The position numbers and the translations under genes are program-made. The notes below the pieces were generated by a model. It saw only the letters and a program-made list of their open reading frames with translations, did not search any database and was not told where the DNA came from. Shown here piece by piece: positions 4,458-6,661 of a stretch of 32,000 bases of DNA. The DNA is taken from the NCBI GenBank assembly GCA_963665115.1, contig OY762007.1, positions 4,132,341 through 4,164,340 of the forward strand, in the 5' to 3' direction. The stretch's first letter is position 1, and each line of letters starts with the position of its first letter. Origin of the DNA: an uncultured Rivularia sp. Lineage in GTDB: Bacteria > Cyanobacteriota > Cyanobacteriia > Cyanobacteriales > Nostocaceae.

Positions 4458-4825
4458 ATGACTGACGAAAACATCAGACAGATAGCATTTTACGGAAAAG
4501 GTGGTATTGGTAAGTCCACTACATCTCAGAATACTCTTGCAGCAATGGCTGAGATGGGTAAAAGAATTATGATCGTAGGTTGCGATCCAAAGGCAGATTC
4601 CACTCGTTTGATGCTCCACTCCAAAGCACAAACAACCGTACTTTCATTGGCTGCTGAGCGCGGTGCAGTAGAAGATTTAGAACTTGAAGAAGTAATGCTC
4701 GAAGGTTTCCGTGGCGTTCGCTGCGTAGAATCCGGTGGTCCTGAGCCTGGTGTAGGTTGTGCAGGTCGTGGTATTATCACCTCCATTAACTTCTTGGAAG
4801 AAAATGGTGCTTACCAAGACTTAGA
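4458..4825 (+). CDS. nifH: nifH segment 1 of 4 (codons 1 to 122 plus 2 nt of codon 123)
   Basis: Encodes [34 protein letters not shown]...[22 protein letters not shown]. The NifH match ends at 4825. The tail of the track ORF (ELIIETVLF*) is read-through into the element. Confidence 0.95.
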
Positions 4826-4929
4826 ATTGATAATAGAAACAGTGCTTTTCTGAAATAGCAATCATTAGAACGATTAACCTGGACTCTACATTATTTTTAA
4901 ATTAAATAACTGCTATTATTCTATTAAAA

Positions 4930-4979
4930 AAGTGGTTTAGTAAAGCATTTTAACAAAATAACTTAAATAAACCACACTT
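4930..4979 (-). terminator. Possible terminator of the element-1 recombinase gene
   Basis: AAGTGGTTTA (4930..4939) pairs with TAAACCACACTT (4968..4979) with a 2-nt bulge. On the minus strand the stem is followed by TTTTTAATAG. It lies about 150 bp downstream of the stop at 5132. Confidence 0.35.
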
Positions 4980-5131
4980 ATTTTTATCTTATTTTTATTG
5001 CTTTTACTTTAATCTATTTCCCAATCATATTTTTTGGTAAAGTTGATTGTACTTAATTCAATTACAATCCTTTTAAGCGAAAATACATAATTGCAAACAA
5101 AGAAATTGTATCGTTATATATCTTTTATAAA

Positions 5132-6540
5132 TCACGTTTTTACTTGTTTTTCTATCTCCAAGCGTTTAATCGTTATCCTTAATGTTTCATTCTCTAACTC
5201 TAATTCCTTGACTCTACTTTCAAGTACTTTCATCATGCCTTGTTTAGCAGTTGCTGTATCAATGGCACTTTTACGATTGTCTAGTGAGAACCATTTTTGA
5301 TAAGTATTGGTATGCATCTGCACGCTATGACCTAAATTATCTGATGCAGCTTTGATTGGTATACCCATTAAGTGCGCTCTAATTGCCCAAGCATGACGCA
5401 AATCGTAGGGAGTAAAACCACATTTTGCTTTTTTAAACCAGTTGCAATTAGCTAATTTGTTAGAATTAAGCCTTTTGTAGGAGATTGAATCTGTAAAATA
5501 TTCTGCAACTGATGAAGATACTTCTTGATTCTTTAAATCAAATAGTTCAATCCATCTTTCGTGTAGTGGTAAAACTTCTCTTTCTCCAGTTTTAGCTAAT
5601 TCATCTACTTTCCAGGTACTGTTAATATTCTCTTTACTTAACCACCATTCGATATTAGGACGTAAAAATAACTCACGCGGGCCCTCAACCCGTATGTTGC
5701 TAACATCCCATATATCCACCGATATATTTTCCAATTATCTTCAAATTTTCTATTCTTAATTCCTCGCTGCTGCCTACCGTTTGCATATTGTTCGTATCCC
5801 AAATATGCTGCTTCTATTTGGCTGTCACTAGGAATATTCCTTTTTTGTGCCTTTGGTCGTTTCAGATATTCGGCTACGTTTATATCTATATCAAAATACT
5901 TTGCGAATATTGATATAGAAATAGCCAAATTTCGTCTAGGGTAGCTTTCTGGTTCGGTAGTATCGAGTATTTGTAAAAGATTATCTGATGTTGCTAGTTG
6001 TTCTAAAGGTATGCGTCTTGTTAACTCTCTAAAGTAGTTATTAAAACTGTGTTCGCTTTTGATTGTGCGCTTGTGGTTTTTGAAGTACTCATTCTCAAAT
6101 CTTTCTAATAAATCACCAAACGTTTTGACTTCTAGTTTTTGCTTGCTCTTAACTCCCAAGTATTTATCATTCCATACAAAACTTTTTCTGGCTATTAACT
6201 TACCTAATTCGTAAGCTTCTTCCTCAGCGGTTTTTAACCCATCTAAATTTGCTGGTATTCCCAATGAAATCAAATACTGTTTAGTACCAGTACCTTTTTT
6301 ATCTTTATCGCCTGGTTTTAGGGGAAGTGTTGCCTGTAAAGCCAAACTATTGTTGTTCTTCGTCACCTTAGCTTTACACCTAGCTGCTTTTAATCGTTCT
6401 TTTAACTGAGCAAACTGCTTTTCAAATTCTTCTTGCATATATTTTTCTCTATGCGCGTCATGGTGTTTGATGCCGAAGTATGACCCATCTGTGCTTGGTA
6501 GTGGCTGATAGTCAGCAAACCCTGTATCTCTATCAATCAT
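5132..6540 (-). pseudogene. XisA/XisC-family tyrosine recombinase, frameshifted at GGGCCC (5679..5684)
   Basis: ORF 5638..6540 contains ...LQATLPLKPGDKDKKGTGTKQYLISLGIPANLDGLKTAEEEAYELGKLIARKSFVWNDKYLG...IYRWIYGMLATYGLR. ORF 5132..5734 continues with PRELFLRPNIEWWLSKENINSTWKV...YDLRHAWAIRAHLMGIPIKAASDNLGHSVQMHTNTYQKW, which holds the catalytic R-H-R-Y region. The total of 1409 nt is not a multiple of 3. Confidence 0.8.
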
Positions 6541-6661
6541 ATTTACCTTACTTTTACATTACTTTTTTGGCTGTTTAGCACAAGCTTTTACATAGCTGTA
6601 ATTAGTTCAGGCTAAACAAAAGTATTGTATAACGTTTCTGGGTAAGTAATGAAAACTTAGA

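Follow-up and report, generated by a model that had tools for sequence, protein, structure and literature searches.

Can an element that splits nifH, and whose only gene appears to be broken, still leave its host gene? The question is raised by a 32,000-nucleotide stretch of DNA (C1:4132341-4164340, referred to below as the window) from a Rivularia-like cyanobacterium, the genome of which was assembled as a single contig of 8.69 Mb with 38% GC. The window covers part of the nif region, in which nifH starts at 4458 and is interrupted three times (by elements 1, 2 and 3). Element 1 lies between two copies of ACTTAGA and holds a single gene, for a XisA-family tyrosine recombinase, which reads in two frames. 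An initial annotation of this DNA took the view that, were the frameshift real, the element could not excise itself and a paralogue would have to act in trans; an assembly error was named there as the alternative. Here we report, with high confidence, that the frameshift is a two-base assembly error. The recombinase is intact (468 amino acids), and element 1 is a minimal interruption element of the ordinary, autonomous kind, and it does excise.

In the window as assembled, the frame changes at GGGCCC (5679-5684), and the gene span, 5132-6540, is 1409 nucleotides (nt) long and not divisible by 3; the two-frame recombinase described in the initial annotation is present in the sequence as given. 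When the gene is aligned with the DNA of an intact orthologue (P0001), the window has two surplus nt exactly at the frame switch (TTG AGG GC CCG CGT, compared to TTA AGA CCT CGT in the orthologue), and alignment with all three orthologue lineages returns the same surplus of exactly 2 nt at this point. Relative to the orthologues, the lesion is an insertion of 2 nt that turns GGCC into GGGCCC, and not the single-base slip that the annotation had implied. Removal of 5681-5682 leaves an open reading frame (ORF) of 1407 nt, encoding 468 amino acids with zero stops.

Read-derived sequence was available as Logan contigs of four public runs (X1, X3, X4 and X5) on window positions 4400-7000. The 2 nt at 5681 are left out in all four runs at full contig depth (201/201 in X1, 70.5/70.5 in X3, 117/117 in X4 and 5.45/5.45 in X5). 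One contig of X1 spans all 2601 bp and has no difference from the window besides the missing 2 nt, and X3 likewise matches the window at every other base; X4 represents a related strain with 49 substitutions, and X5 is a marine metagenome. Consistently, a species-representative Rivularia metagenome-assembled genome (MAG) with 98.4% DNA identity (L036) reads CGCGGCCTCAAC where the window reads CGCGGGCCCTCAAC, with GGCC at the site; in this MAG the gene is uninterrupted over 468 codons, and its product shares 99.4% identity with the corrected window protein. The four runs and this close relative place no frame-disrupting lesion in the organism's DNA, and the gene is not a pseudogene by this evidence. 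Resequencing had been proposed as the check, with an intact ORF of roughly 469 amino acids as the outcome that would leave an ordinary element; the independent contigs of the four runs supply one of 468 amino acids.

The same type of lesion recurs across the genome. The central GC was deleted at each GGGCCC, and a merge was counted when this lengthened the longest open frame spanning the site by over 60 codons. ORFs merged at 7 of the 56 GGGCCC sites in the genome, compared to 18 of 3000 random positions (0.6%). Control hexamers mostly gave 0-1% merges, and GGCCCC, which overlaps GGGCCCC runs, gave 3%. The other six merge sites are C1:782961, 1261873, 3580005, 7196140, 7861057 and 7883161 (L027-L032). 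At five of these six, Pfam scans place both halves in one family, with profile positions that adjoin at the break:

PsaA_PsaB (psaA/psaB), break between profile positions 545 and 546 of 711
CobN-Mg_chel (CobN/Mg-chelatase gene), break between profile positions 697 and 698 of 1090
MurJ (murJ), break between profile positions 203 and 205
Glycos_transf_1 (GT4 glycosyltransferase), break between profile positions 54 and 59
Phosphoglucomutase, domain I in one half and domains II-IV in the other

The breaks at these loci can be put down, with near certainty, to assembly errors, and the genes hit are essential ones. Because a living phototroph would not be expected with all these genes broken, the assembly has systematic surplus bases in G/C runs. 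Most of the sites concerned consist of longer G/C runs, e.g., GGGCCCCC and GGGGCCC. When single-base corrections were applied genome-wide, G4-G5 and C5 runs merged ORFs in 1.6-2.3% of cases against 0.75% at random positions, a 2-3-fold excess that is noisy and adds weak support. The assembly error at the G3C3 run, which the initial annotation had offered as the alternative, is therefore backed by reads, by relatives and by the genome-wide pattern. For this genome, a gene that looks broken at a G/C run needs confirmation from reads before its state is interpreted biologically.

A blanket conversion of GGCC to GGGCCC, for instance through methylation-linked miscalls, was considered as the source of the surplus bases and rejected, as 2066 GGCC remain in the genome and GGGCCC occurs 56 times against a Markov expectation of 189. 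With its 2066 copies, GGCC is about 6 times rarer genome-wide than CCGG, GCGC and CGCG (~13,000 each), and GGATCC, CCCGGG, GGCGCC, CCATGG and GCATGC are nearly absent (5-21 copies each). The genome shows strong palindrome avoidance, as would be expected under restriction-modification pressure.

Two more split genes were noticed in the nif neighborhood. A second XisA paralogue (L014, C1:4194708-4195968), ~30 kb past the window end, is divided into frames of 393 and 70 amino acids. The frame breaks at a G4 run with one surplus G: with TTGGGTCAC in place of TTGGGGTCAC it would read ..DNLGHSVQVHT.., and judging from these letters the split probably belongs to the same error class. Within the window, nifS (2024-3237) is given as two overlapping ORFs, 2024-2416 and 2347-3237, and is likely a further artefact.

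With the gene restored, the anatomy of element 1 can be laid out as follows, in window coordinates:

4819-4825, left ACTTAGA repeat, the putative crossover core; the junction is identical in the orthologous loci L001, L021, L026 and L033-L037
4826-5131, AT-rich left arm, on the downstream side of the recombinase gene; orthologues keep the first ~200 bp (alignment with L001, L021 and L026)
4926-4975, minus strand, terminator-like hairpin (inverted repeat I19) with stem 4932-4945 / 4962-4975, then T6 on the recombinase-sense strand
5132-6540, minus strand, XisA-family tyrosine recombinase gene; ORFs of 300 and 200 amino acids as given, a single ORF of 468 amino acids minus the two spurious bases
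5679-5684, apparent frameshift site GGGCCC; 5681-5682 (GC) are missing in read-derived contigs and the true sequence is GGCC
6541-6654, right arm and presumed xis promoter region, 114 bp from the recombinase start codon to the right repeat; kept in orthologues
6655-6661, right ACTTAGA repeat; kept in orthologues

The two repeats are spaced 1836 bp start to start, which is the length of element 1 with one ACTTAGA copy counted, and the element is placed in nifH codons 121-123, at nt ~362 of the gene. The only long reading frames between them are two overlapping minus-strand ORFs, 5638-6540 (300 amino acids) and 5132-5734 (200 amino acids). The limits and the content of the element, 1836 bp with one antisense recombinase gene, are as the initial annotation had them. 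The start codon of the recombinase is at 6540, 114 bp from the right repeat and antisense to nifH, and the element therefore has its own recombinase near one end. The parts of nifH and the neighboring elements are arranged as follows:

4458-4825, plus strand, nifH segment 1 (from the ORF list), NifH residues 1-122, terminating in the left repeat; Pfam Fer4_NifH, E=3.5e-60, profile positions 1-115
6660-6731, plus strand, nifH segment 2, 24 codons between elements 1 and 2; Pfam Fer4_NifH, E=4.9e-11, profile positions 117-139
~6732-8460, element 2, with a tyrosine recombinase of 481 amino acids
~8815 to a point between ~30650 and ~30700, element 3, beginning with an XisF-equivalent serine recombinase (NCBIfam recomb_XisF, E=1e-147)

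In the Fer4_NifH profile of Pfam, positions 1-115 are reached by 4823, positions 117-139 follow from 6660 and positions 141-258 from 8461, and the three successive pieces of nifH are thus colinear parts of one interrupted ORF. A crossover between the two ACTTAGA copies gives GAC TTA GAT (D-L-D) in frame, so that direct repeats of this kind restore the gene. Because the NifH profile positions run on contiguously across the restored junction, the ACTTAGA pair is not a chance occurrence.

Evidence of excision comes from run X3, in which the branch points of the assembly graph coincide exactly with the repeats. A first contig stops at 4825, an element path runs over 4796-6684 at a depth of 70.5, and another contig starts at 6655. 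In addition, a contig of 53 nt with a k-mer depth of 24.5 joins 4796-4818 to 6655-6684 and skips 1836 bp, with 7 letters that fit both sides. With words of 31 letters and an overlap of 7 nt, a precise deletion would produce 23 junction-specific words and hence a unitig of 53 nt, which is the length observed. The depth of the left flank, 91.1, is close to the sum of 70.5 and 24.5. This joined nifH contig documents precise chromosomal excision; therefore element 1 is excised, and the possibility entertained earlier that it never leaves nifH falls. The joined form makes up ~26% of the k-mer depth in X3, about a quarter of genome copies, and none was found in X1 or X4 among the contigs on 4400-7000. 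Another X3 contig, 4 kb long and continuing through elements 2 and 3, is likewise less deep (72.6) than the left flank; the depths, though coarse as contig depths are, are consistent with all three elements missing from the same fraction. In X5 a commoner relative is present, at a depth of ~41, with nifH uninterrupted at the element-1 site (GCT TAC CAG GAT TTG GAT TTC).

The window itself has two frames, and if the 2-bp insertion were a real mutation, the gene would be a pseudogene and the element either stuck or excised in trans by one of ~9 intact XisA paralogues in the nif region. Candidates for such a role exist, as many XisA paralogues with 39-50% identity to P0001 are present in the genome, among them the recombinase of the nifD element at 31293.., which does share the sequence blocks pointed out in the initial annotation and is 47% identical over the N-terminal half. 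This account is very improbable. All four runs lack the 2 nt, two of them while matching the window at every other base, and the same lesion type breaks psaA/B, the CobN/Mg-chelatase gene and murJ, which cannot all be real. Moreover, in the available portion of a 2016 survey of such elements (PMC4874684) the compared paralogous elements have other core repeats, and cross-recognition is not expected. Since the recombinase is intact in the contigs of four runs, no trans-acting paralogue is needed. What holds from the initial annotation is a bounded minimal nifH element with a XisA-family gene paralogous to the nifD-element recombinase; a real frameshift, and with it the loss of self-excision, is not supported. 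Hardly worth entertaining is the idea that GGGCCC is a site of programmed -1 ribosomal frameshifting, or of transcriptional slippage, by which full-length recombinase would be made at low, regulated levels. The downstream frame is indeed -1 relative to the upstream frame, and -1 frameshifting is used by some mobile-element transposases. Against this, the extra bases are missing from the read-derived contigs and from every orthologue, all of which are single-frame there, so that the site is not a conserved one, and A-GGG-CCC does not conform to the X-XXY-YYZ pattern of standard slippery heptamers.

A different question is what the joined form in X3 represents. It could be a vegetative sub-population, or a near-identical co-occurring strain, with germ-line loss of element 1, in which case the element would be intact and the deletion would not be developmental excision. 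The joined share of ~26% is well above the 4-5% junction reads of diazotrophic Calothrix sp. NIES-4101 (PMC11249958); the element depth of 70.5, lower than the 91 of the left flank, and the absence of a circle junction of element 1 among the run contigs listed on 4400-7000 would fit loss of the excised DNA, and X5 shows that the site is empty in some related organisms. On the other hand, the depth of 72.6 through elements 2 and 3, below 91.1, fits a heterocyst-like joint absence, X1 and X4 are without the joined form, and contig depths are too coarse a measure to lean on. Germ-line loss is thus considered unlikely, though not to be neglected. Because about a quarter of copies excised is several times the usual heterocyst share, and because no circle was seen, it is conceivable, if rather doubtful, that element 1 excises outside heterocysts, or earlier or more often than its neighbors, and has been caught being lost from the vegetative lineage. 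To the preferred reading of an intact, autonomous element and a two-base assembly error, the high excised fraction and the missing circle are objections, and there are others. Runs X1-X3 are possibly the assembly's own source reads, which would argue for an assembly error and yet not sample the strain independently, the library type of the runs is not on record, and Logan contigs omit rare variants, so that a minority of cells with the insertion is possible. The activity of the recombinase and its recognition of the ACTTAGA sites are predictions, and heterocyst timing of the excision is presumed by analogy with the family.

Homologues of the 300-amino-acid part of the recombinase form three clusters of intact 469-amino-acid proteins at 90-91% identity (P0001, P0002 and P0004), beyond which there are several hundred XisA-family proteins at ~50% identity. 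The corrected protein of 468 amino acids is 91% identical to the intact 469-amino-acid P0001 and P0002, and 50% identical over 464 aligned residues to XisA of Anabaena PCC 7120 (P0060, named 'Excisase A'). Tyrosine recombinases require Arg, His-x-x-Arg, His/Trp and Tyr. The motifs GLRPRE, LRHAWAIR, LGHS and TYQKW are aligned and invariant with respect to XisA and the orthologues, and all catalytic residues are kept in the corrected protein. The domains XisAC_N (PF27551) and XisAC_2nd (PF27132) are found on 120 of 120 homologues among the matches listed, including the 91%-identical orthologues. Full-length likeness to XisA, together with these N-terminal family domains on the orthologues, assigns the protein to the XisA family. 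Pfam and NCBIfam scans of the two half-ORFs gave only Phage_integrase on the C-terminal half (E=6e-5, below the Pfam cut-off), the XisAC models being outside the set scanned. Within 90 kb around the nif genes (C1:4129780-4219338) there is a cluster of some 9 further XisA-family genes with 39-50% identity to P0001, and the nif region is therefore very heavily interrupted; two more XisA-family genes are located elsewhere in the genome.

The sequences around the repeats were inspected for recombinase sites. On either side of the left ACTTAGA stand the members of an imperfect inverted pair, CTTACCAAG before and ATTGATAAT after the core; the right copy has another such imperfect pair, GTAATGAAA and TTTCGTATC. 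As read from the sequence, the four half-sites have roughly T-W-A-Y-S-A-A in common, a putative layout that would be expected for two recombinase protomers around a crossover region of 7 bp. Motifs like CTACATTATTTT in the left arm are also present in the right arm, and motifs like TACATTAYTTTT occur in both arms (repeat families D1-D3 and I17); the latter could be arm-type sites. In the course of excision, the recombinase would bind the half-sites beside ACTTAGA at each end, as in the rest of the family, and, by analogy with Anabaena XisA, the two cores would be brought into synapsis with strand exchange inside the 7-bp ACTTAGA. A circle of 1836 bp would be released and GAC TTA GAT left in nifH. 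Excision would presumably take place late in heterocyst differentiation, with elements 2 and 3 removed by their own recombinases, both as is typical of the family.

The terminator-like hairpin is located ~160 nt past the xis stop codon, and its fold is kept in 6 orthologous elements. Compensating changes are seen in the stem across these orthologues (GUGG/CCAC, GUAG/CUAC and AUGG/CCAU). The hairpin may be the xis terminator and would stop the xis transcript before its antisense entry into nifH segment 1. A terminator consensus scan of 4700-6800 called none, the loop of the hairpin (>8 nt) being too large for that scan. In a promoter consensus scan of 4700-6800, promoter-like matches were no commoner than in shuffles, and no NtcA box (GTA-N8-TAC) was seen by eye in the right arm.

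The same nifH junction is found in the genomes of five species, namely Richelia sp. UBA3308 and four Rivularia MAGs. For Richelia sp. UBA3308 and three of the MAGs the retrieved sequence covers the gene completely, and the recombinase is intact, in a single frame of 468-469 amino acids. For the fifth genome (L033) it covers the junction but, of the recombinase, just the C-terminal 151 residues. The junction also occurs, with an intact recombinase at 88-99% identity, in about a dozen metagenome contigs, marine ones included. Two of the orthologous loci, a marine metagenome contig (L001) and that of Richelia sp. UBA3308 (L021), have at the next nifH site (~nt 407, GTGGCGGTTTCGC) a serine-recombinase element and not the tyrosine-recombinase element 2. 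They have another serine-recombinase element upstream, and their nifH pieces are only 70-80 and ~15 amino acids long.

There is no element here with a dead recombinase that stays trapped in nifH unless a paralogue acts; two surplus bases in an assembly created that appearance. Marine Rivularia and Richelia-like lineages share element 1 at this nifH position, and there is direct sequence evidence of its precise excision. What remains is a representative of the smallest heterocyst interruption elements, at a nifH site missing from the available portion of the 2016 survey (PMC4874684).

A close known counterpart is the developmentally excised nifD element of Anabaena/Nostoc sp. PCC 7120, of 11 kb with the direct repeat GGATTACTCCG (Golden 1985; Lammers 1986; cited in PMC4874684 and PMC11249958). 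Like that element, element 1 is inside a nitrogenase structural gene, is bounded by short direct repeats and has its own tyrosine recombinase of the same family, with xis near one end and antisense to the interrupted gene. Unlike it, element 1 is in nifH and not in nifD, has a core of 7 bp (ACTTAGA) and not 11 bp, and at 1.84 kb carries no cargo, in contrast to the cargo-bearing 11-kb element. Another multiply interrupted nifH is known from Calothrix sp. NIES-4101, in which nifH1 is split at residues 48, ~135-139 and 263 (Uesaka et al. 2024, PMC11249958). Both genomes have nifH in four pieces through several elements, each with its own recombinase, and in NIES-4101 restoration was demonstrated through joined contigs in resequencing data, evidence of the kind given here by the X3 junction. 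In NIES-4101, 8 of the 9 recombinases assigned to nif restoration are serine recombinases and inversions are required (PMC11249958), whereas all four nifH pieces are co-directional here and simple excisions suffice.

The catalogue of Hilton, Meeks and Zehr (2016) has 101 interruption elements, and its available portion permits a closer comparison (PMC4874684). Several minimal, cargo-free tyrosine-recombinase elements of 1.67-1.91 kb are included in its Table B, such as nifD-227 (1.735 kb), nifB-170 (1.868 kb) and hupS-610 (1.828 kb) of Rivularia PCC 7116, nifD-227 and nifD-896 of Calothrix PCC 7103, and nifH-92 (1.906 kb) of Calothrix desertica. Element 1 resembles these, as far as they are described there, in having a recombinase gene and AT-rich arms only, low GC, xis ~115-120 bp from one edge, and a host in the same cyanobacterial family (Rivulariaceae / Calothrix). 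By the same portion of the catalogue, element 2 corresponds to the 428 type, element 3 to the 781 type and the nifD element at ~31190 to the 227 type. The nifH-428/429 element, recorded there from Anabaena sp. 90, Nodularia CCY9414 and Nostoc PCC 7524, is 5-9 kb long, with a XisA-like tyrosine recombinase and the repeat CCGTGAAG (PMC4874684). It shares with element 1 a location in nifH and a terminal, antisense xis, and its site is occupied here by element 2; element 1 lies ~65 nt upstream of that site, has another core and has no cargo. Among the six nifH variants in the available portion of the catalogue (92, 143, 257, 405-409, 428/429 and 781), none is near nt 362, the approximate position of element 1 with its repeat ACTTAGA (PMC4874684). 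Element 1 is thus a further insertion-site variant of a well-described kind and, counted against those six, would be the seventh in nifH.

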